Of a DNA stretch of 64,000 nucleotides, positions 486 to 19,279 are shown in pieces; position 1 is the stretch's first letter; each line of letters opens with the position of its first letter. The stretch comes from an uncultured virus (IMG/VR IMGVR_UViG_3300030098_002223) (lineage: Duplodnaviria > Heunggongvirae > Uroviricota > Caudoviricetes), in IMG/VR virus record IMGVR_UViG_3300030098_002223; one strand, written 5' to 3'. The notes beneath the pieces were generated by a model. That model searched no databases, was not told the DNA's origin, and saw only the letters and a program-made list of their open reading frames with translations. The translations under genes and the position numbers were made by a program.

Positions 486-2707
486 TCCGCTAATGATTGT
501 TGTTTCTTATCTAACATTGTTAATGGTGGTTTCTTTTTCACATACTCTTTCAAACCGAATTTGACAAGTAGGTTAGATATTGTATCCCAGTAGTAGGTGA
601 TGTCTATTTCTTCTATGTTTTTGATTTGTTCTTTAAGACGGTATCCTTCTTTAGTCTTAGCATAAAAGTAAGTAGTTCCCTCTGCTGGTTCCATACCTAT
701 TTGTTTACCTAGGTTCATTAGTTGAACTGTTAAGTCTGTCTCTGATTTATAGTCGTCGTAGCCTCTATTAGTAGACCTACGCATTATAAAATCTTCTAAT
801 ACATACTCGTCCAGCTCGTATAATTTATCTACAAATGAATTTGTAACGGTGTTATTTAATCTGGCGTCAGATAGTTTATCTAACACCTTATTATAGAATC
901 TAGAGCGGCTCTTTGATTTGAATGTGCTTCCATGCTTCGTAACACTACCATCCAAGTTACGCAATATATAATTACCAACTTGTATCCATACACCCTCTTT
1001 GAATACATCTTTATCCATAGATATATTCTCTGCCTCAGTAAAAGGCATGTGGTATTTTAAAAGTTTACGTAAACGATTAGTTAACCAATTGACATCCACA
1101 TCCACATTAGTATTAATCCCATCAGTGTGAACATAAACCACAGCATCTTTTCCATATCGTGCACGGATGATGTCGACACCCGATAAGAGTAACCAACGGG
1201 CAACTGCCGTGATAGTAAGCCCCACACCCATATCACCGTAAGAAATATAAGGATTAGCGTTTGCACCATAGAAAGTATTCACCATTATTTTTAGAGCATT
1301 AGATTTACTCTTATCTTCTTTAGTGGTGCCTACCTTATAAGGTTTACGCATTTCTTTAAATTCTTTACACATGGTATATAAACAACTTTTCTTATCTTGG
1401 TCTATTTGTATCATTAGACGTTTGTTTACTTTGTTATCAGGAACATAGAGGATTCCATCCTTAAACTCTATGTCTGGGGTGTATTCATCATAGCCTACAA
1501 TTCTTGTGGTATCTGGTCCTAAGTTGAGAGCCATCGCTATAGAGGGATAATATGAACTGAAATCTACCTTATAGTTCTCAGCCTCATAACCCTGTCTATA
1601 TAGTTCAATGTGTGCAGCTTGGTAGTTGCCTTTATCAAACCTAAATATCTCAGGATGTCTCTCTTTGTTTCTATCAAGCGCCACTATGCCCTGCTCGAAT
1701 AAGCTCCTCCCCTGCAATATTTTAGTAATATAGCTGCTGGGGGCATTAACATAGGTGGCCAGTGGAACGCATAGGACTTCTGCTACGTATTGAATTTGGG
1801 GGAAGTAGTGGTTATACATAAACATGGTGCAATCAACATCTGACAATACATAGTCTTCTATCTCTTGTAGGGGGTAATCGAGTAGAGTTTTGTCGCCAAA
1901 GTCGAGCTCAATCGGTTCTAGTCCGAATGCTTGAGATACCTGTTTAAGACCACGGGGCAAACCTGACAGCGAGTAGTCAAGTCTTGCCCACCGTAGCAGG
2001 TCCAATATTATACGCCCACCGGCGTTCATCTTTAGTTCTCGGTTGTCCTTAGGAGGTTCATACCCCCAGTCGGAACCATCTCGGTTGAGATGTTTTTTAT
2101 ATTGGGTTTCGTTTATATGATTATAACGGACCCTGTGGAGTATTTGTGGAATATCATACCCCACAAGATTCCACCCCGCAATAATGTCAGGGTCATAGTC
2201 TTGTATATAATTTGCGAAGTCCCATAGTAGTTTGCTGTCATCTTCTTTCTCGTTGTCCCAAAGGAACACTTTGCGCTCTCCGGTAGAAGTTACAATGCCA
2301 ATGGCAACAATGGGATATTTTTCTCCAAAAGGAAAAGTCCCATCTGGGGAGTGTGTTTCTATATCGAACACAAGGCATTTTACATCTTGGTCGTTAGGGT
2401 AATCTGCAAAGAACGTTGGATGTTCTATACATAACCTTTCGAGTAATGCTTCCCTTCCACCATCAAAGAGTGCGTGAGTAGGAACGTGGTCTCTACTCGG
2501 TATATAGGTGTGTTTCTTTAAGTTGACAGTCTTATCTGATGCTATCAACTTCTTAGTCTCCCCGTTTTCGTCCTCAGTATAGAAGCATGGCTTATATGGA
2601 GAAGGCACTGCTTCAGCCTTTCCGTTTCTATACATCTTGACCATCAAAGAATTATCTTTAAGATTTATTGTGCGTTTGTTTATACTAGCAATTAGTGGAA
2701 CTTTCAT
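476..2707 (-). CDS. polB: Family B DNA polymerase with 3'-5' exonuclease
   Basis: ExoI VFDIET, ExoII GWNLVGYD, ExoIII YVLSD, motif A VDFSSYYPS, motif B KSNALKIMVNTFYG, motif C YVHTDG; C-terminal PIP box QQSLAEW. Confidence 0.95.
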   Translation of the reverse strand: MKVPLIASINKRTINLKDNSLMVKMYRNGKAEAVPSPYKPCFYTEDENGETKKLIASDKTVNLKKHTYIPSRDHVPTHALFDGGREALLERLCIEHPTFFADYPNDQDVKCLVFDIETHSPDGTFPFGEKYPIVAIGIVTSTGERKVFLWDNEKEDDSKLLWDFANYIQDYDPDIIAGWNLVGYDIPQILHRVRYNHINETQYKKHLNRDGSDWGYEPPKDNRELKMNAGGRIILDLLRWARLDYSLSGLPRGLKQVSQAFGLEPIELDFGDKTLLDYPLQEIEDYVLSDVDCTMFMYNHYFPQIQYVAEVLCVPLATYVNAPSSYITKILQGRSLFEQGIVALDRNKERHPEIFRFDKGNYQAAHIELYRQGYEAENYKVDFSSYYPSIAMALNLGPDTTRIVGYDEYTPDIEFKDGILYVPDNKVNKRLMIQIDQDKKSCLYTMCKEFKEMRKPYKVGTTKEDKSKSNALKIMVNTFYGANANPYISYGDMGVGLTITAVARWLLLSGVDIIRARYGKDAVVYVHTDGINTNVDVDVNWLTNRLRKLLKYHMPFTEAENISMDKDVFKEGVWIQVGNYILRNLDGSVTKHGSTFKSKSRSRFYNKVLDKLSDARLNNTVTNSFVDKLYELDEYVLEDFIMRRSTNRGYDDYKSETDLTVQLMNLGKQIGMEPAEGTTYFYAKTKEGYRLKEQIKNIEEIDITYYWDTISNLLVKFGLKEYVKKKPPLTMLDKKQQSLAEWI

Positions 2708-2970: not shown

Positions 2971-3293
2971 AGACCATCCCTATAAGCTTGAGCTTGTTCG
3001 GGTGTCATCCTTTGAAATAATTTATCCATATTATTTACCATGAGTTCAGATATTTTTATATCATAAACGTCACATAATCTTTGAAGATACCACAATACAT
3101 CACCCATCTCATCTATGATGAGTTCAGTATTATCTACCCTATCTCTTATTTCTTTTTTAAATGCTCCACCGACTTCTCCAGCTTCATTCATTAAACCTAT
3201 CATTAGGTATTCTTTCTCTCTACGCTTTGGATACTTTGCTGTCTTACGAGTAAAGTCCAAATAAGTAGCTTCTATTCCTTTTACGTCTGCCAT
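2967..3293 (-). CDS. MazG-like nucleotide pyrophosphohydrolase
   Basis: GLMNEAGEV...IIDEMGDVLWY motifs. Confidence 0.9.
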   Translation of the reverse strand: MADVKGIEATYLDFTRKTAKYPKRREKEYLMIGLMNEAGEVGGAFKKEIRDRVDNTELIIDEMGDVLWYLQRLCDVYDIKISELMVNNMDKLFQRMTPEQAQAYRDGL

Positions 3294-3604
3294 ATATTCA
3301 ACTCCTCAGGTAGTATATCTCTTTTCACTACCCAATTTCTCTCAGTTGGTAGGTAACGATAGACTAAGTCTGCCTTTTCATTACCTTGTATGGGCCAAGG
3401 TTTGATTAATATTAAATCATTTTCTCTGACCCACATTCTTTTTTTGAAGCGACCACCGATACGAACCATACGTGTGTTACCATCTTCACACATAGCTTTG
3501 AGACGAGAACCACCACTCATCTCCATAACGATAGCAAACTGTTCATCCTTCACAGGAAGTTTAGTTTTCTTCGTAGTAAATCCTGACGGCTTCTTCTTCT
3601 TCAT
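3281..3604 (-). CDS. eif1a: Translation initiation factor aIF-1A (archaeal eIF1A)
   Basis: GGSRLKAMCEDG..RMVRIGGRFKKRMWVRENDLILIKPW...KADLVYRY is the aIF-1A OB-fold signature. Confidence 0.92.
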   Translation of the reverse strand: MKKKKPSGFTTKKTKLPVKDEQFAIVMEMSGGSRLKAMCEDGNTRMVRIGGRFKKRMWVRENDLILIKPWPIQGNEKADLVYRYLPTERNWVVKRDILPEELNIWQT

Positions 3605-7128: not shown

Positions 7129-7237
7129 ATCTGTCCTCCAATAACTGTATAGCATTGTTGACAGTATGGGTTGCCGTTAATATCTCTATACCTTATATAC
7201 TTAGGGTGTAAATTACACTTACACAAACCACACTGCA

Positions 7238-8108: not shown

Positions 8109-8369
8109 TCATTTGAACCACAAGTAATATGCGATTACCCCCAAACAAAATAGATTGCCGATTGTATATAAGATTATGGTCTTCATATTTATATCATTCT
8201 TCTTTTTTATTACTTTCTTCGGGGTCTTTACTATAAAATGAGGGATACTTTTCCAACACTCATCACAAAGATAAGCTCTAAGGTGAGGTTCTTCACTCGT
8301 GTAGTGGGTTAAACATCTATTACATTTATGCCACAATACTTTATAGTATGGTGGTTTAACTGAATTCAC
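8109..8369 (-). CDS. Zn-finger protein with C-terminal TM helix
   Basis: CNRC...CDEC plus hydrophobic C-terminus. Confidence 0.6.
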   Translation of the reverse strand: MNSVKPPYYKVLWHKCNRCLTHYTSEEPHLRAYLCDECWKSIPHFIVKTPKKVIKKKNDINMKTIILYTIGNLFCLGVIAYYLWFK

Positions 8370-8955
8370 CTGCCACTTCCAAATATTTTTTAGTAGCCAT
8401 TATGATAGGTTGTTGTAATTCTTGAGGTATGAAATCTAATCCATCCATACCCATATCTATATCTTGATAGAATATTTCTAAGTATGCACTAAAGTTATCA
8501 GTTATGTAGTGATAACCATTAGCCACATCTTCATCATAATCTCTTATAAAATTAATAATTTGATATGCTCTACCCAAAGCTCGTGCATGTATTTCACATC
8601 GTGGGTCACAGCCTAATATCTTTGACATCATCATACCAACTGACTCAGCTGAGCCTTTGCAGTAATCTAACATAGATACAACTGAATGTTCTTTCTTTAC
8701 CATATCTTGATACATACTTATATGGAAGTCTGAGAGCCATTCACCTTCAAACTGATACTTGTCACTCACTTCATAGAATTGTTCTATAACTTCTCTCCAT
8801 TGTTTGAAATCATGTAATGTCTTCTCACCCTCAACCATTTCATCACATACTCTAAGGTATGCGTATAGTTTGTATATATCTTCTTTGATATCATCTGGCC
8901 ACGCACTCATACACTCAAAGAATGTAGTGCTGTATTCTTCCATTATCTCTTTCAT
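8356..8955 (-). CDS. Compact phytoene/squalene synthase (CrtB-like) head-to-head prenyltransferase
   Basis: YSTTF, LYAYLRVCDEMVE (first Asp-rich motif), YC..SAESVG, ALGRAYQIINFIRDYDED (second motif). Confidence 0.8.
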   Translation of the reverse strand: MKEIMEEYSTTFFECMSAWPDDIKEDIYKLYAYLRVCDEMVEGEKTLHDFKQWREVIEQFYEVSDKYQFEGEWLSDFHISMYQDMVKKEHSVVSMLDYCKGSAESVGMMMSKILGCDPRCEIHARALGRAYQIINFIRDYDEDVANGYHYITDNFSAYLEIFYQDIDMGMDGLDFIPQELQQPIIMATKKYLEVAGEFS

Positions 8956-10669: not shown

Positions 10670-11104
10670 TCATTCTTTCTCCGTTGGCCAATAGTATTCA
10701 TACTCGTTTATGATTGTGAGGTCCGTTTGTGCATCAGTATCGAAGTGCTGTTTATAAAAGTCGTAATCCTTACGAAGTAGGTTCATTCGATGTGACTTAT
10801 GCAGTTCCGGATAGCCTAACCATTGAGGGTATACTATTGGCCCTTCTATCTCATATAGTTGCATTGTGTTGTTGTATCCACGTGCAACCCACTCTTCTAT
10901 CATTACGTTAGTGTAATGTTTCAAAGCGTTTTCATAACCAACCCACATCAAACGTGCAGGGTGGTTGAGCCAACCTTTCTTATCATAGTCTGGACTGAGA
11001 GAGTTGATGAGCTGAAGGCCCTCTACTCTTTGCTTACCGAGACGACGATAGTCAAGGATTTTGGCTGATGTTCTAAAATTTTTTGTTGGTAAAAATGTTT
11101 GCAT
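10670..11104 (-). CDS. Pyrimidine-dimer DNA glycosylase / MSMEG_6728 family
   Basis: MQTFLP...LDYRRLGKQRVE...GW.NHPA..MW.GYE...SHR.NLLRKD. Confidence 0.85.
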   Translation of the reverse strand: MQTFLPTKNFRTSAKILDYRRLGKQRVEGLQLINSLSPDYDKKGWLNHPARLMWVGYENALKHYTNVMIEEWVARGYNNTMQLYEIEGPIVYPQWLGYPELHKSHRMNLLRKDYDFYKQHFDTDAQTDLTIINEYEYYWPTEKE

Positions 11105-11144
11105 ATTATCATTTCCATTTGATTATGTTTCAATATATTTGAAA

Positions 11145-11163
11145 TATCTATATAAAGGTTTGG
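11145..11163 (-). promoter_or_regulatory. BRE-TATA promoter
   Basis: minus strand CCAAACCTTTATATAG. Confidence 0.7.
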
Positions 11164-11519
11164 GTGCAACGAAGAGAGAACGGCTTCTCAGTAAGAGTCG
11201 TGTAGCTTCGCACATGAAACTATCGTGCTCTTTCTTTTCATATACCTACTGATGACTCTAATAAATCTTTCAGCATTCCAAACTCATCTGACATAACTGT
11301 CACGATAGATTTACAGGGGTATACTGAGGTATGCTTGACATATACTCGTCGCCATAATGATTAGGCTAAACGATATATTTGGTTCCTTTGTATTCAGCTA
11401 TCACCATACCGATAGCTACCTCTCTGTTCATACTGTCCTACAACAGTAGCATTACGATTAAATCGGGCTGTGCGTGGCCTGATGAACAAACTGAAATTCA
11501 AAATTCAAGTCTTCGTTGC
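11161..11519 (-). ncRNA. putative ~355-nt structured ncRNA
   Basis: no minus-strand ORF >=60 aa; perfect 10-bp terminal stem (11166-11175 with 11510-11519) enclosing many internal helices. Confidence 0.65.
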
Positions 11520-11530
11520 GATTTGGCGGA

Positions 11531-11566
11531 TGCTGAGCCGACCGACAGATGACTCAGCACCTGTCG
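11531..11566 (-). other. H-type RNA pseudoknot
   Basis: CGACAG/CUGUCG interleaved with UGCUGAGUC/GGCUCAGCA. Confidence 0.6.
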
Positions 11567-11568
11567 CC

Positions 11569-11658
11569 TCAACCGAATAGTATAAGCATCACCATCCATA
11601 TCATTATAAAGAAAGCGAATAGCATATACCACTCAGCTTCATTAACGTCTCGACTCAT
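11569..11658 (-). CDS. 29-aa single-pass membrane peptide
   Basis: manual translation MSRDVNEAEWYMLFAFFIMIWMVMLILFG; ATGA overlap with the vWA stop. Confidence 0.55.
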   Translation of the reverse strand: MSRDVNEAEWYMLFAFFIMIWMVMLILFG

Positions 11659-13766
11659 ACTTTAATTACCTTCCTGATAATCTTACTCACCTTAGTTGGT
11701 AATTCTGATGTCTCTTCACACATGATATAATTACTAAACATATCTTTCATGATACGCTCACGTGCACCCGAGATACCTATTTGTATTACATTCCAACCTT
11801 GAGTCTCAATATGTCTGACACACTTTTTAGTATGTGGCACACTGAGATGAAACCTGTATTGGTCTGCTGATGGTTCACCATCTGAAATAACAATCATAAG
11901 TTTGTTACTACCTATGGAGGGTGACTCAGCTTTGACTCTCTCAGCTGATGCGAGGATAGCCATACCATCTCTGTTTTCACTACGTGCTCTCATCGCACCC
12001 ATAGCTTTGATATCACTTTGATATGTAGGTGACCAATACACTGACATATTAGTTTCACCTTTGTTACCCCAATCGTAACCGTCAGCTGTGTGACCAAACA
12101 CCCATAAGTTGAGAGCTTGATTATCCTTGAGTGATTCACGTAAAGCAATAGCAGTTTCACGTGCTTTCCTCATCTTCCATGTTCCCATACTACCGGACTC
12201 ATCAATTAAGAGACATACATCTAATGGTTTATCTTCATCAATAATTACATTCTTGAATAAGTCGGTTCGACCGAGAGGTATTTTATGTAGCATACGCTTA
12301 TCTAACTTACCTCTTCGTTGGTTGCGAATAGTATTTACACGAGTGTCACCGTATAAGTTTATCTTACGTTTGAGTTGACCGATAGCTGACTTCATATTCT
12401 TTTCAGCATTATCATACTCATCTCTCGCCCACTCAGCTGAAGCTTTCTGATTACGCCATGTAACCTTACCACCCTGTTTCAAACCGAGAGCACGAGCTGT
12501 GTCCCAACTCTCTTCGGAGTAGTCACTGTCAGCTAATTCTTCTATCTCATCATTTAGTGTGTCTGAAATAGTGTCTCTGTCCAAACTGTAATCAGCGAGT
12601 TCCGAAGCGAACTTTTCTAAAGCTCGTGATAATTTCTCTTTACGGGCATATCTGTCACCACGTTCAGCTTCATCACGTTCTTGTTTTATCAGCCTCTCTT
12701 TGATACGGTCTATGTCTTTGTCTGACATATCATCAGCACCTTCACCCCAATCTTCTAAGATATCTTTTAATCTTTCATCAGCACGTCGAAGTATTTCTTC
12801 TTCGTCGGTGTCTTCATGTTTCTTAGCTTCTTCTTTAGCGAGTTGATTCATATAACAATATATAGAATCTATAGCCATAAAAGTTGAATGTCTATCAGTT
12901 AGTGCATCCTTCAACGCACGAGCAAAGAACTGAATGTGTTTAGCATGTTTCTTTTTACGTTCGGCTGAGATAGATGTAGGATATCTTACCATAGCTAATA
13001 AAGTATTCATTATATCGGCAATAGGATTACCGTTCATCTCATCTATCTTATGACCATGTTTACCAAAGAAATGTTCTTTGACTTTCTCAATATACATAAT
13101 ATATCCGGCATGAGTCTTAGCTAACTGAGATTCAATATACTCATCTTCTATAATGTTAGCGATGTTATGTAGTAATCTTTCCTGTGAAGGATTTAAAATA
13201 TTTTCATAAGCATAGTTCCTTTCCCACTTTGTTAGTGGTTTAGTGTGAACTAAGTGTAATTTTTCATGAATTGAGAGACCAGCTAATACATCCAACTTGT
13301 CATCATTACTCTCAATAAGAGAACCATCTACGTAGATAGTTCCATTCCTCATATTAGAATAATTCTTTGTATCAGTTGCGAAATGTAATGAGTGTTTAAC
13401 GTTTGGGTCTACTACTTTACAAAGAGAATCCAAATGTCTTTTATGTTTGAGCATACGAGCTGATGAGCTTGTAGACTGAGACCAACTACCCCATGAAGTA
13501 GCTCCACCACCTGACCAATATGAACTACCACCCCATGTGAATCCGGAACCTCTGTTCCAAAGGTCACCGTGTGCTGAGACAGTAGGTGCAGGTGAACTAT
13601 ATGTCTTTGCTATTGTTGGACTGACGAATGGGTCTACTGTGGTATAACTGTTGCCACAATCTTTACAGTTGCCATGACCGTCGGCATCAGTCCAATCGTC
13701 ACACGCATAACAAAAGTCATTGTCGCTGTCCTCAGTCCATTCATCTATTGAATCGCCGTAATCCAT
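11655..13766 (-). CDS. vWA-domain protein (CobT/NorD-like) with N-terminal Zn finger and HExxH motif
   Basis: MIDAS DESGSM...ISDGEP, HEKLH...NIIEDEYIE, CYAC..CKDC; partner of the adjacent MoxR. Confidence 0.85.
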   Translation of the reverse strand: MDYGDSIDEWTEDSDNDFCYACDDWTDADGHGNCKDCGNSYTTVDPFVSPTIAKTYSSPAPTVSAHGDLWNRGSGFTWGGSSYWSGGGATSWGSWSQSTSSSARMLKHKRHLDSLCKVVDPNVKHSLHFATDTKNYSNMRNGTIYVDGSLIESNDDKLDVLAGLSIHEKLHLVHTKPLTKWERNYAYENILNPSQERLLHNIANIIEDEYIESQLAKTHAGYIMYIEKVKEHFFGKHGHKIDEMNGNPIADIMNTLLAMVRYPTSISAERKKKHAKHIQFFARALKDALTDRHSTFMAIDSIYCYMNQLAKEEAKKHEDTDEEEILRRADERLKDILEDWGEGADDMSDKDIDRIKERLIKQERDEAERGDRYARKEKLSRALEKFASELADYSLDRDTISDTLNDEIEELADSDYSEESWDTARALGLKQGGKVTWRNQKASAEWARDEYDNAEKNMKSAIGQLKRKINLYGDTRVNTIRNQRRGKLDKRMLHKIPLGRTDLFKNVIIDEDKPLDVCLLIDESGSMGTWKMRKARETAIALRESLKDNQALNLWVFGHTADGYDWGNKGETNMSVYWSPTYQSDIKAMGAMRARSENRDGMAILASAERVKAESPSIGSNKLMIVISDGEPSADQYRFHLSVPHTKKCVRHIETQGWNVIQIGISGARERIMKDMFSNYIMCEETSELPTKVSKIIRKVIKV

Positions 13767-14131
13767 TCATCTACCTCACTTACTAAATCCTTGTCTTCGT
13801 TGGTGAACTTATACTCAAAACATTTGAGACTTCTCTTAGCTGAACCAACAACACATTTATAAATAAACATATCTTCATTACTAACTAAGCCTTCGGCTAT
13901 CTCTCTTATTTCGTTAATACTCATAGTTGGTTTATTTGGAATGAGAATATCCTCATCTTGTATTAATCTACGTTTGTATGCACCTACGTGTCTACCATTG
14001 ACCTCAGTCTCGGGAAACACATCTTTGATTATCTTTCCTATCATTGTAGGTTTATAACCATTCAGTATAAGGAACTTAGCCAACTGATGCCAATATGTAT
14101 GCTTTCTACGTAATAGTTTTTTCTTAACCAT
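13745..14131 (-). CDS. hypothetical, possible HTH DNA-binding protein
   Basis: basic helical N-terminus; sits between MoxR and vWA. Confidence 0.55.
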   Translation of the reverse strand: MVKKKLLRRKHTYWHQLAKFLILNGYKPTMIGKIIKDVFPETEVNGRHVGAYKRRLIQDEDILIPNKPTMSINEIREIAEGLVSNEDMFIYKCVVGSAKRSLKCFEYKFTNEDKDLVSEVDEWITAIQ

Positions 14132-15310
14132 TTATTCACCCATTGATTGAATAACCTGTATGATACGAACTCTCTCAGTATCGTCACCACCCTGAACAGG
14201 GTAGAACGGTAAGCACGTATGCTTTAGTGCATCGACCAAAGGCATTCCATCAACAACTAACTCAGCTGATGCTAAACACATACGTGTTGAAACAGCAGTA
14301 TTGAGTTCGTCTGAAGCATATAGGTCACGCACTCTCTTAGCAAAGTCTACAATCTTATCAGCATCGTAGTCACTAAGCTGAGGGTTTCTGTTTTGTATCA
14401 GTTCCTTTTCTTTCTGTGGAGGTAAATACTCTAATTCGTATATACCACCTGTGAATCTATCTTTCCATGCTCGGTCTAAATCATGAGATGCACCGAGATA
14501 CTCTCTACCTATGTTAGCAGTAGCGTAGAAGAACGCACCTTTACTAACTGAGACAGTATCAGCATCCTCACTCTCATCGAGAGCTAAATACTTTTGACCA
14601 TCTAATACCGGCATGAGAATGTTAGCTAAGTCACCTGTTCGGTCACGTGTAACCTCATCTAACATAATGAATGAATCACCTTGTATTGCATTGACGAACC
14701 GAGATGGTTTGAACCATGTCCCTGCTTCTTTGTCATACTTAGTGTCACCCAATAACTTAGCTGAGGGATTCATAGTGTCACCGAAGTTAAAACTATAAAA
14801 GTCCTTTGCAGTGATATCAGCTAATATCTTACCGAGACTACTCTTACCACAACCTGATGGGCCTGTGATGAGAATGTTCTTACCTCTAAATATGTTTCTC
14901 AACATAGTATAGAATGTCATGTCATCAGCGAATTTAAACTCTTCGGGCACATTAACTGACCCTCTCAGTTTAGACATCACTGTGTCTTTCTCTACTTCTA
15001 CCACTTCTTCGGGGGTAGGTTCCTCTTCTAACGTGGGACTGTCTCGGTCGAATAGACCATCGAGTCCTCCATGTCGGTCTTCTGTTTCCATTGTATCTCC
15101 AGATATATCATCCTTTATAAGCGTTTCGGTTGTTGAACTGAGAAGTTTATCCTCATCTGAACCATGATATAATCCTTTCTTCCATCTTCTCACTCCACGC
15201 TTGTCTTCACTCACGTGCCAATACCTACCGTCTCCACCTACACGTTCATGGTGTAGAGGGAAGTCAGTAGCTGACTCAGTTGGTGATGGTCTCGTTCTTC
15301 GTCTACTCAT
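14132..15310 (-). CDS. MoxR/CbbQ/CobS-like AAA+ ATPase
   Basis: GPSGCGKS, IMLDE, ATANIG.EY.G..DLDRAWKDRF, VSTR. Confidence 0.9.
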   Translation of the reverse strand: MSRRRTRPSPTESATDFPLHHERVGGDGRYWHVSEDKRGVRRWKKGLYHGSDEDKLLSSTTETLIKDDISGDTMETEDRHGGLDGLFDRDSPTLEEEPTPEEVVEVEKDTVMSKLRGSVNVPEEFKFADDMTFYTMLRNIFRGKNILITGPSGCGKSSLGKILADITAKDFYSFNFGDTMNPSAKLLGDTKYDKEAGTWFKPSRFVNAIQGDSFIMLDEVTRDRTGDLANILMPVLDGQKYLALDESEDADTVSVSKGAFFYATANIGREYLGASHDLDRAWKDRFTGGIYELEYLPPQKEKELIQNRNPQLSDYDADKIVDFAKRVRDLYASDELNTAVSTRMCLASAELVVDGMPLVDALKHTCLPFYPVQGGDDTERVRIIQVIQSMGE

Positions 15311-15985: not shown

Positions 15986-16159
15986 TCATACGATTAGGGA
16001 GCCACTATATAAGCGTTTCCCCTCTTGAACTGAGAGCCCAGCACGAAAAATATACTGAGAGAAAAAAAACGGGGGCTTTTTCATGCAAAACTATTTATAG
16101 TTCACCTTCTCTATATTATACTATATTAAATCATAGCTCAGTTATGCAATAACTAAGAC

Positions 16160-16576
16160 CTAAAGTAAGGAGCTTAGTTGAGCCTAACTGAGTTATGCTC
16201 TATTACTTAGTAGAGCATGGTTAGTGGAGCCTTCTTATAATATAGGGCTAAACACTACTTACTATACTTTCTTCGAACGAACACTGTTCGCATACTGAAC
16301 CCGAACTGGTTCCGGTTTGGAGGATGAGCTTTAAAGCTTTCGAACCAACCTAAGCTCCACTAAGCATTTTCTCATTGTGGCCTACCGAAGTGCTCAGTCG
16401 AGCCCTAGCCCAACTGAGACAATTTCTCATCGGGGCTGTCCGTTTCTTAATTGAGCCATAATGCTCTACTGAGACAGTTTCTCATCTGGCCCTACCGTAT
16501 CTTAGTAGAGTCATGGAGCCCAACTGAGAAGAGTTTCTCACCCGGCCCTATCGAGCTGAGGGGGGTTTAATTGAGC
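16160..16576. repeat. iteron-like array: 11-bp GCYCNACTRAG in alternating orientation, ~55-bp period
   Basis: ACTRAG cores at 16359, 16413, 16468, 16523, each followed by TTTCTCA; inverted copies at 16393, 16446, 16501. Confidence 0.8.
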
Positions 16577-16633
16577 TGAGTCCACCCGAGTGGAAAAATT
16601 TCCCCTTGAGTGGAAAAAAATTTTTGTAAAAAA

Positions 16634-16723: not shown

Positions 16724-16876
16724 TGTAAGGTGGGTAGGAGGATTTAATGTATACCTCCAATGGGTTTATGCCACTACATAGTAGAACCCATACCAGTTTC
16801 GCATCCCTCCGGCAGTTGCCTCTCGGTTTGCTCAATCCTGTGCCTTAGTTCGTGGCGAACTTGTTCGGCCATACCC
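16724..16876 (-). ncRNA. putative structured RNA module 2 (~150 nt)
   Basis: GGGUA/UACCC closure; internal UGGcCGAAC/GUUCGCCA, AUGGGUU/AACCCAU and GGAGG/CCUCC helices; ACCUUACA tail. Confidence 0.6.
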
Positions 16877-16962
16877 GATAAGGAAGAGCTACTTCCTTAA
16901 GTATAAGGTGGGGAGGAATCGCCTCCCCTACGTGTTTGCTTGTTAACCGCTGTGTTCAGCGT

Positions 16963-17561: not shown

Positions 17562-17613
17562 GTAATACCAAGAGGGAGTCCCTATATAAAGCTTTTTTCA
17601 CACAAGTGGAAAA
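17562..17613 (-). promoter_or_regulatory. early promoter with CAC-N4-GTG operator
   Basis: TTTTCCACTTGTGTGAAAAAAGCTTTATATAG...TGGTATTAC-ATG. Confidence 0.8.
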
Positions 17614-17614
17614 A

Positions 17615-17755
17615 TAAGATGCGACTTCACCAATGTGGTATATACTTTGAAACAAGTCACATTGGGAGCGGTCGCCACAGGGTAACGTGTTGTTAACGAA
17701 CAGAGGTTACCCATCAGGGTGTGACCTGCCACCAGACAAAAGGATATCCTTCACG
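17615..17755 (-). ncRNA. putative structured RNA module 3
   Basis: GGGUAAC/GUUACCC helix, GCGAC..CCAAUGUG/CACAUUGG..GUCGC helix, AUCUUA tail. Confidence 0.5.
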
Positions 17756-18010
17756 TAAGGTGGGCGTAAACAAGATAAAGAGAATTACTTCATAGTTTCG
17801 ACGAGGAAGTATATAACAGGGACTAAGTGAGGCAAAAGGTGATACATAATTTTAGCTACACGTCGTTAATCAACTAAGATGCGCATCGACCGGAAAGGGA
17901 TTGGTCAGCACTTGTTCAGCTTCAGTTTGTTATTGCTTATCGTCTACTTGCGTATGGTCTATTCTTGTCTTGGAACTCAGGTCACGTGTTAAGCACGTGC
18001 CTTAACTGTA
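17756..18010 (-). ncRNA. putative promoter-driven ncRNA module 4 (~250 nt)
   Basis: own TATA promoter at ~18030-18042 with no ATG at the expected TSS; AGACAAGA/UCUUGUUU long-range stem; ends CCCACCUUAC. Confidence 0.55.
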
Positions 18011-18029
18011 ATATGAGATAGGGGTGTCC

Positions 18030-18896: not shown

Positions 18897-18935
18897 AGGG
18901 AGCAGGGGAAAACAATAAAACCCTGCTCTTGCTAG

Positions 18936-19061
18936 TATAAGGTCGCCCAGCTGCCCCACCACCTAGGGGTGGCCGACTCACTGGGCTGGGGTTGCGTCGC
19001 TTCGTTTAACGCTCGGGCGGGCTTATGTCACTGGCCCTTCGCCATCACTTGTCAGGCGACC
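18936..19061 (-). ncRNA. putative GC-rich structured RNA module 5 (~120 nt)
   Basis: GGUCGCC/GGCGACC terminal stem, internal GGGC/GCCC and CCACC/GGUGG helices, ACCUUAUA end. Confidence 0.6.
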
Positions 19062-19067
19062 CCTGTT

Positions 19068-19171
19068 GTTATCCCATTTAATAGAGAGTTGCTTTTTAGG
19101 CTTACAATCTAACTTGCCCTTTCCGTTGGGTGCACCTACTCCTACGGCCACATCTTACAGTCTGGGATAAC
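19068..19171 (-). ncRNA. putative structured RNA module 6 (~105 nt)
   Basis: perfect 9-bp GUUAUCCCA/UGGGAUAAC closure. Confidence 0.5.
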
Positions 19172-19180
19172 TCACGGAAT

Positions 19181-19279
19181 CTAAAGATTTTTTTCCATTT
19201 CTTTGCGTATTCTTCTTAGTGCTTTTGTATTGGCGTATATCTGTTTTAAAGATAAATGCGCCCACGGGTGTTTTGCCAT
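19181..19279 (-). CDS. basic microprotein (32 aa)
   Basis: MAKHPWAHL... directly after a TATA..TGGTATAGT promoter. Confidence 0.55.
   Translation of the reverse strand: MAKHPWAHLSLKQIYANTKALRRIRKEMEKNL

Follow-up and report, generated by a model that had tools for sequence, protein, structure and literature searches.

The stretch of viral DNA analysed here (64,000 nt, hereafter the window) encodes, at 11519-11166 on its minus strand, a member of a family of conserved, covarying, non-coding viral RNAs without any Rfam match. The RNA is thus real and constitutes a novel large ncRNA. We regard it as almost certain that it is a structured ncRNA, and it very probably carries a modular cargo, differing from virus to virus and drawn from a shared pool. 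About 50 nt of scaffold are constant among members, the remainder being exchangeable. As judged from sequence, the family is one of uncultured marine tailed viruses of archaea. An earlier note on this DNA had proposed a novel, multi-domain viral ncRNA at 11161..11519. An RNA does lie there, and its novelty stands, as it is conserved, covarying, non-coding and without Rfam match, but the unit reaches 50 nt further 5', and it lacks the single, invariable architecture of several domains seen in tmRNA or RNase P RNA.

A family of structured non-coding RNAs

The family comprises 32 complete loci with 31 distinct RNAs, which range from 54 to 734 nt. Several searches contributed to this collection. 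The search with the neighbouring glycosylase gene returned 19 loci, the element being directly upstream in 10, and of the 21 loci found with an alignment of the VWA gene, 19 carry the element, one stops at the gene and one lacks the element. A pattern scan of metagenomes gave 31 matches, of which 27 belong to the family and four are due to chance; 11 of these members were used, after exclusion of 10 duplicates and six truncated copies. Finally, a module scan contributed L143 and L146. The VWA proteins of the family viruses are 47-90% identical to that of the window. The RNA occurs as one copy per record where found, and no second copy was detected in 23 records searched with one long member as query. 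Among cultured phages, the window RNA and the 734-nt member yield only chance matches of 24-38 nt. In scans with patterns of single modules (see below), family members account for three of 23 matches to module C in viral contigs, the others lacking the stem, and for seven of 11 matches to module A, the other four being due to chance.

All complementarities listed in the earlier note are present where it placed them. The region also forms a better fold than each of 100 shuffled sequences (z = -3.4). Folding z-scores are negative in all 21 members of up to 360 nt, and below -2 in 18 of them. There is no conserved reading frame in the family, as the longest closed frames span 3 to 74 codons without any common size. 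Stems of the RNA show compensatory changes among the homologs (see below). We found no description of this RNA family in the literature or in Rfam 15, although the supplementary motif tables of RNA-discovery papers might contain one and most subscription papers lay outside our search.

The features of the locus are as follows (all on the minus strand).

11655..15310: upstream operon, presumed parent transcript, with a MoxR/CbbQ-type AAA ATPase (14132-15310), a 128-aa ORF and a CobT-like VWA protein (11655-13766)
11569..11658: hydrophobic ORF of 29 aa that overlaps the stop of the VWA gene; the base following its own stop codon is the first of the processing hairpin
11520..11570: bulge-helix-bulge hairpin, with outer pairs 11570-11569/11521-11520, central 4-bp helix 11568-11565/11528-11525, 3-nt bulges 11564-11562 and 11524-11522, and inner stem-loop 11561-11529
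11510..11519: P1, terminal stem, 5' strand (fold and homologs)
11491..11509: scaffold 5' side, with 3-nt pyrimidine loop 11509-11507, P2 11506-11503, internal loop 11502-11496 and P3 11495-11491
11425..11488: module A, with closing helix, conserved internal-loop core and variable arm; 16 rows among 29 distinct RNAs
11326..11422: module C, a multiway junction; the loop (11406-11403) of hairpin 11417-11396 pairs with 11383-11380, forming a pseudoknot
11351..11366: module D, which lies here within one arm of C and consists of a 3-bp stem and a 10-nt loop that is near-invariant; 13 rows and two variants among 29 distinct RNAs
11240..11324: module E, with junction, bulged helix and small hairpin
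11252..11270: module O, a small hairpin nested in E here and in C in L008 and L078
11195..11230: module S, a hairpin with a symmetric 5x5 internal loop; six rows, one two-sided change
11176..11191: scaffold 3' side, with P3 11191-11187, internal loop 11186-11182, P2 11181-11178 and 2-nt pyrimidine loop 11177-11176
11166..11175: P1, terminal stem, 3' strand (fold and homologs)
11161..11165: unpaired tail
11149..11160: promoter box of archaeal type, which belongs to the next gene and adjoins the 3' end of the RNA
10670..11104: pyrimidine dimer DNA glycosylase gene, the downstream neighbour, which is not fixed across the family

Genomic context and host

The window represents most of a tailed-virus genome, with genes for a family B polymerase, a terminase, a portal and an HK97-type capsid protein, and the closest record is a 63-kb marine virus contig, identical across the RNA element. 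On the minus strand, the CobT-like VWA gene and the 29-aa ORF precede the element, which is followed by the promoter box of the glycosylase gene. The upstream gene differs from clade to clade, but the RNA always sits at the end of a coding run, and no promoter of its own was seen. ORFs similar to the 29-aa one are found upstream in many homologs and are absent from L008, L009 and L061. The hydrophobic peptide accompanies the RNA in most members, even where the RNA has left the VWA gene, but the shortest members lack it.

Two lines of evidence indicate that the host of the window virus is archaeal. The virus encodes an aIF-1A (3281-3604, minus strand) which scores 107.9 bits against an NCBIfam cut-off of 91, and an archaeal-type promoter motif occurs 11 times in the window, versus 0.13 times in shuffled sequences, with a start codon 20-70 nt downstream in five of the 11 cases. 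The host lineage was not reached through comparisons of Hsp20, polymerase, capsid protein or aIF-1A: the polymerase is 22-23% identical to those of cultured viruses, the capsid protein had no match in the host-lineage search, and the best aIF-1A match among 301 genomes of one archaeal phylum is 57% identical. The VWA gene was not found in cellular genomes. Such a CobT VWA gene is among the features reported for the Krittikaviridae (Magrovirales) in the cited account (PMC11706807), which is to be read as a lead only.

Several other features of these genomes deserve mention. A manA RNA scoring above the gathering threshold is located at 16727-16899 (minus strand), about 5 kb from the RNA element, in this apparently archaeal context. 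More GC-rich and hairpin-rich non-coding DNA lies among early small genes at about 18920-19200 and 17600-18020 (minus strand). Four early promoters (19471, 18877, 18298 and 17594, minus strand) combine an archaeal box with a short inverted repeat just upstream, which is likely a regulator site. The long non-coding stretch at about 16000-16600, with short motifs repeated in both orientations, is possibly an origin or a genome end region. A short squalene/phytoene synthase-like gene (8356-8955, minus strand) also has a counterpart in a distant relative. The complete relative L116 carries a tRNA-Glu (1226-1301) and, about 0.7 kb past the RNA, an ATP-dependent ligase (11084-11944) best matched by DNA ligase, with the RNA ligase model just at cut-off.

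None of 24 RNA sequencing runs screened contained half of the sequence words. Four contig sets covered 23, 2, 5 and 6 of 30 bins, coding genes included; these contigs are shallow and uninformative for expression, and they show no ends or joints at the RNA. One RNA-library contig (10887-11638) runs unbroken across the processing hairpin.

The ends of the RNA: rod versus cloverleaf

Two folds compete for the RNA ends in the window's clade. One is a rod, which runs from P1 through a 3x2 pyrimidine loop to P2, and from there through an internal loop to P3 and the cargo. The other is a cloverleaf with D-like and T-like hairpins, the latter being an alternative fold of the scaffold 3' side (11176..11191, minus strand). 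Covariation was counted over the 18 distinct scaffolds present among 24 members of this clade. The 10-bp terminal stem of the earlier note (P1, 11519-11510 with 11175-11166) is upheld by the homologs, with 144/144 cells paired, a count that is partly circular because the member search required P1. P2 is paired in 72/72 cells with 13 two-sided changes and P3 in 86/90 cells with five, versus 67/72 cells without any two-sided change for the T-like stem and 59/72 cells with two for the D-like stem. When 16 members are aligned independently with MAFFT, 64/64 cells of P2 are paired, 13 two-sided changes are counted and none of 500 shuffles scored as high, although this control is inflated by relatedness; four different P2 helix sequences occur. 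The wobble pairs of the scaffold define one strand.

The cloverleaf stems break in four members (L013, L092, L093 and L101). Furthermore, the seven second-clade members and L146 possess a different inner rod without T-like hairpin, while keeping P1 and the pyrimidine loop, which follows P1 in 28 of the 31 RNAs; these two other scaffold types (eight members) pair the tail into a stem. The stacked 3' hairpin with T-arm/acceptor-like geometry that had been proposed earlier is thus missing from eight members and, in the others, has no two-sided change against 13 for the helix competing with it. Yet minimum-energy folding of the window RNA gives the cloverleaf, as does consensus folding of nine short members; among these nine, both folds fit equally (98.7% and 99.3% paired), and single short members fold as rods. 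As P2 covaries while the cloverleaf stems barely do, we dropped the idea of a tRNA-like cloverleaf whose anticodon arm is replaced by cargo. The rod is taken here as the putative conserved end fold, and a switch between rod and cloverleaf is possible. The ACCCA tail noted after the terminal stem corresponds to a tRNA-type 4-nt tail in 19 of 30 members, but it is altered in the window itself. One member (L101) shows an additional hairpin (7144-7176) in the 33-nt leader that separates the processing hairpin from P1.

Exchangeable modules between the rod strands

The cargo located between the two P3 strands measures 3 to 475 nt in the window's clade. It is optional, since cargo-free forms of 54-56 nt exist (L061, L009 and L080). 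At least a dozen modules recur, which we label A, B, C, D, E, F, G, H, I, J, K, N, O, S and others (the letters are our own). Their order in the window is A, C holding D, E holding O, and S.

Module C illustrates how these units are conserved. Its hairpin is found in 18 of the 31 RNAs, and its pseudoknot comprises at least four Watson-Crick pairs in 15 of these 18 and three pairs in the remaining ones (as read by eye, a scripted count being an underestimate). L006 and L092 gain one base on both strands of this pseudoknot, which was no part of the earlier note. The linkers are conserved and purine-rich, and the module is circularly permuted in three of 17 cases (L006, L013 and L092). More generally, the unpaired sequences of module cores are kept while their stems vary with compensatory changes, a putative mark of binding sites.

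The same modules appear in various contexts. Module D, whose loop contains a near-palindrome, is hosted by A (L006, L110), by C (window, L004, L103, L107) or elsewhere (L010, L013, L101), and module K is nested in A (L093, L106) or in E (L107). Module B occurs seven times, with 24 identical nucleotides in L007, L010 and L107, although these viruses are divided by a VWA-tree split supported at 100/100; both B and K are nearly unchanged across the deepest, fully supported split of this tree. Conversely, sister viruses may differ, as L008 (137 nt) has module C and L009 (56 nt) has no module at all. Modules are thus seen to be present or absent, nested and permuted in different members, a pattern that probably arose through gain, loss and rearrangement by recombination. 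The pool must be larger than our catalogue, as the cargo of L062 is mostly uncatalogued sequence. Module A matches in seven of 301 archaeal genomes, fewer than does a reversed control, and is thus no host-derived copy.

This modularity sheds light on the inner helices described in the earlier note. Homologs support the 7-bp helix closing 11488-11425, the hairpin 11417-11396 and a small hairpin near 11303-11290, but none of the other long-range pairings listed. Both partners of the 7-bp pairing between modules E and O occur together in one of 31 RNAs, as do those of the 6-bp stem around the proposed pseudoknot loop. The two crossed helices have both partners in two and one of 31 RNAs. Single partners of these pairings are found in many other members. 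The 8-bp pseudoknot is intact in two of 31, and its 3' strand takes part in a local hairpin for which L005 provides a two-sided change. These long-range helices and this pseudoknot, which are not conserved, join parts of different modules.

A bulge-helix-bulge hairpin upstream of the RNA

The 50 additional nucleotides at the 5' side, also outside the earlier note, form the bulge-helix-bulge hairpin at 11570-11520, which folds with a z-score of -4.3. It adjoins P1 on the 5' side in 30 members, and its start is never more than a few bases away from a stop codon. The hairpin also emerges when 18 homologs are folded to a consensus without constraints, 11 of its 17 pairs showing two-sided changes; the central 4-bp helix is paired in 18/18 homologs and shows such changes in three of its four pairs. 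This helix is also present in 30/30 members of a wider set, a partly circular figure because the search required it. A helix closes the inner side of the bulges in all members. At least one pair follows the second 3-nt bulge on the outer side in 24/30 members (which was not a search requirement), while this side is unpaired in 6/30. The outer helix comprises only 1-2 bp in most members, and 5 bp in L146. This member (650-780, minus strand; polymerase 64% identical), which has the third scaffold type, carries the hairpin 3' of the RNA, before a gene without promoter box. From this placement, the hairpin appears to behave as a movable cutting site. Its loop (11561-11529 in the window, and homologs) is rich in U in long forms, and most clade-1 members keep a 6-nt motif there.

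The hairpin matches the definition of the archaeal splicing-endonuclease substrate as given in PMC4090602, and cuts at such motifs yield circular RNAs, according to PMC12558985. The short or unpaired outer helix speaks against cleavage, since PMC4090602 describes the euryarchaeal enzymes as strict, as does the RNA-library contig that crosses the hairpin unbroken. On balance, processing of the hairpin by a splicing endonuclease is probable, and the excised hairpin circle may have a role of its own. Host enzymes are implied, as we found no reverse transcriptase, TROVE protein, splicing endonuclease or RtcB among the 57 window proteins or the 76 proteins of a complete relative.

Comparison with known RNA classes

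At the gathering threshold, manA is the only Rfam family detected in the whole window, and at E-values up to 10 the RNA region and 16 homolog loci give chance-level matches only, including none to riboswitch or ribozyme families. None of the families suggested for checking in the earlier note (tmRNA, RNase P, SRP, ROOL, GOLLD and group I introns) matches. This holds for the models of tmRNA, bacterial and archaeal RNase P RNA (with its conserved P4 core), SRP RNA (helix 8 and Alu domain) and ROOL, GOLLD and OLE. ARAGORN found no tRNA-like domain in the window and no tmRNA in 37 loci. The tmRNA acceptor stem has a wobble pair at position 3, but the third pair of the stem is Watson-Crick in 18/18 scaffolds here; nor can there be a conserved tag frame, because the 54-56 nt members have no room for one, and the closed frames share no size. 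A group I intron was rejected, as the catalytic core has no Rfam match and the RNA is intergenic rather than interrupting a gene. Resemblances to pistol and hatchet ribozymes, the c-di-AMP riboswitch, the L1 stalk, 5S loop E and T-loops were considered, but no analysis supported them.

More partial likenesses are instructive. tmRNA, tRNA-like elements and engineered tRNA-scaffold RNAs have paired ends, a tRNA-type tail and a large insert replacing one arm. The family shares the paired ends, the insert and, in many members, the tail, but it lacks covarying T or D arms, the alanine identity pair and a tag frame, and it is ARAGORN-negative. Known large viral ncRNAs have, to our knowledge, one fold per class. 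ROOL, GOLLD and OLE, as presented in PMC12286853, resemble our RNA in measuring several hundred nucleotides, in their many helices and pseudoknots and in being virus-encoded. Each of these classes keeps a single conserved fold, however, and occurs in bacterial hosts, while our family fixes only a 50-nt rod, carries a combinatorial cargo, appears to have an archaeal host and lacks an Rfam match. manA (Rfam RF01745) is likewise a marine, virus-borne structured RNA, but its fixed 190-nt fold, for which PMC2864571 proposes a 5' regulatory role, is not matched here. UG27 reverse-transcriptase ncRNA arrays also consist of phage ncRNA units gained and lost among close relatives, as described in bioRxiv 10.64898/2026.09.22.753630, but they are tandem repeats of one fold, serving as cDNA templates beside a reverse transcriptase, while unlike modules nest here in one closed RNA and no reverse transcriptase was found. 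Finally, archaeal bulge-helix-bulge introns and processing stems share the 4-bp helix, the two 3-nt bulges and the excisable, circularisable stem-loop (PMC4090602 and PMC12558985). Those introns reside in tRNA or rRNA, unlike our hairpin, which lies between an mRNA and a viral ncRNA and has an outer helix of 1-2 bp, and therefore looks less like an intron awaiting splicing than like a site of release.

A possible decoy scaffold and its alternatives

We propose, tentatively and at somewhat less than even chances, that the RNA is a scaffold which the host processes and on which decoy or ligand RNA domains are displayed. The RNA would be transcribed as the tail of the operon, and the host tRNA splicing endonuclease would cut the bulge-helix-bulge hairpin, as its motif suggests, releasing the RNA from the mRNA and probably leaving the excised hairpin as a small circle. 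The ends would then zip into the rod indicated by covariation, holding a multiloop open and perhaps shielding the RNA from exonucleases. Each virus would place its own set of folded modules from the shared pool into this multiloop. These modules would most likely be ligands of host factors, acting as decoys or sponges for defence or RNA-binding proteins, and diversifying selection would act on them, as on the small anti-defence genes of variable loci. Such a decoy function is a reading by analogy to which we give just under one chance in two, because optional, individually conserved and freely exchanged units resemble accessory anti-host functions. We know of no previous viral use of the host splicing endonuclease to excise an ncRNA from an operon. 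Adenovirus VA RNA and RNA anti-CRISPRs are structured RNAs that soak up a host factor. They share the proposed decoy mode, but each has a single target, unlike a multi-module carrier, and no such carrier is known to us.

Other explanations account for parts of these observations. The unit could be a cis-acting 3' element which stays on, or ends, the AAA-VWA mRNA, with the cloverleaf recruiting RNase P, tRNase Z or a tail-adding enzyme and the cargo tuning mRNA stability or translation. This would fit the invariable location at the end of a coding run without visible promoter, the tRNA-type tail of 19 of 30 members and a cloverleaf compatible with most clade-1 members. We nevertheless consider it unlikely, given that the cloverleaf stems have zero and two two-sided changes and are broken in L013, L092, L093 and L101, that these stems are absent from the other scaffold types, where the tail is part of the stem, that the upstream gene varies by clade, and that a 3' stabiliser has no need for a dozen exchangeable modules. 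It is less likely again that the cargo is an array of small-molecule aptamers or small ribozymes, binding nucleotide messengers or metabolites or cleaving themselves. Small ribozymes and aptamers do occur circularly permuted, as does module C, a junction that contains a pseudoknot and conserved linkers rich in purines, and the same genome harbours the riboswitch candidate manA; but the searches at E-values up to 10 (window region and 16 homolog loci) returned no riboswitch or ribozyme family, and self-cleavage within nested cargo would cut the carrier apart.

About as improbable, or slightly more so, is an RNA that self-assembles like ROOL and GOLLD, its modules providing the tertiary or intermolecular contacts, such as kissing loops and A-minor docks, by which a multimer or a cage would be assembled. 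The near-palindrome in the loop of module D would suit such contacts, and the phage or bacterial RNAs ROOL, GOLLD and OLE multimerise through loops of this kind in the account given by PMC12286853. These RNAs keep one architecture, however, while sister viruses here have RNAs of 56 and 137 nt (L009 and L008) or unrelated module sets, a variation that a defined cage would not tolerate, and Rfam provides no match. Lastly, the locus might be a tolerant landing site, a functionless structured accretion or a feature of single-stranded DNA, which would agree with the dispensability of the cargo in 54-nt forms. We deem this very unlikely: loops are near-invariant and stems compensatory across viruses whose VWA proteins are 47-90% identical, wobble pairs fix one strand, and the bulge-helix-bulge motif is a signal for RNA processing.

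Implications

Returning to the decoy or ligand scaffold, one may go further and view the element as an RNA-level accessory locus, in which a universal rod, released by the endonuclease, carries recombining domains that each inhibit or hijack a different archaeal protein or messenger; we see this extension as possible, and as a little more doubtful than the scaffold itself. RNA domains evolve here like protein domains, by insertion into arms, nesting, exchange between clades and circular permutation. The modules are small enough to be synthesised and tested, so that a dozen candidate natural aptamers become accessible, and the empty 54-nt form is a ready natural scaffold for RNA engineering. 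If true, modular cargo on a fixed stalk would give viruses a new means of equipping themselves with anti-host tools, amounting to a natural multivalent aptamer platform and to the first catalogue of RNA-based counter-defence in archaea. The family also opens a path to the means by which abundant marine archaeal viruses manipulate their hosts, which so far escape cultivation.
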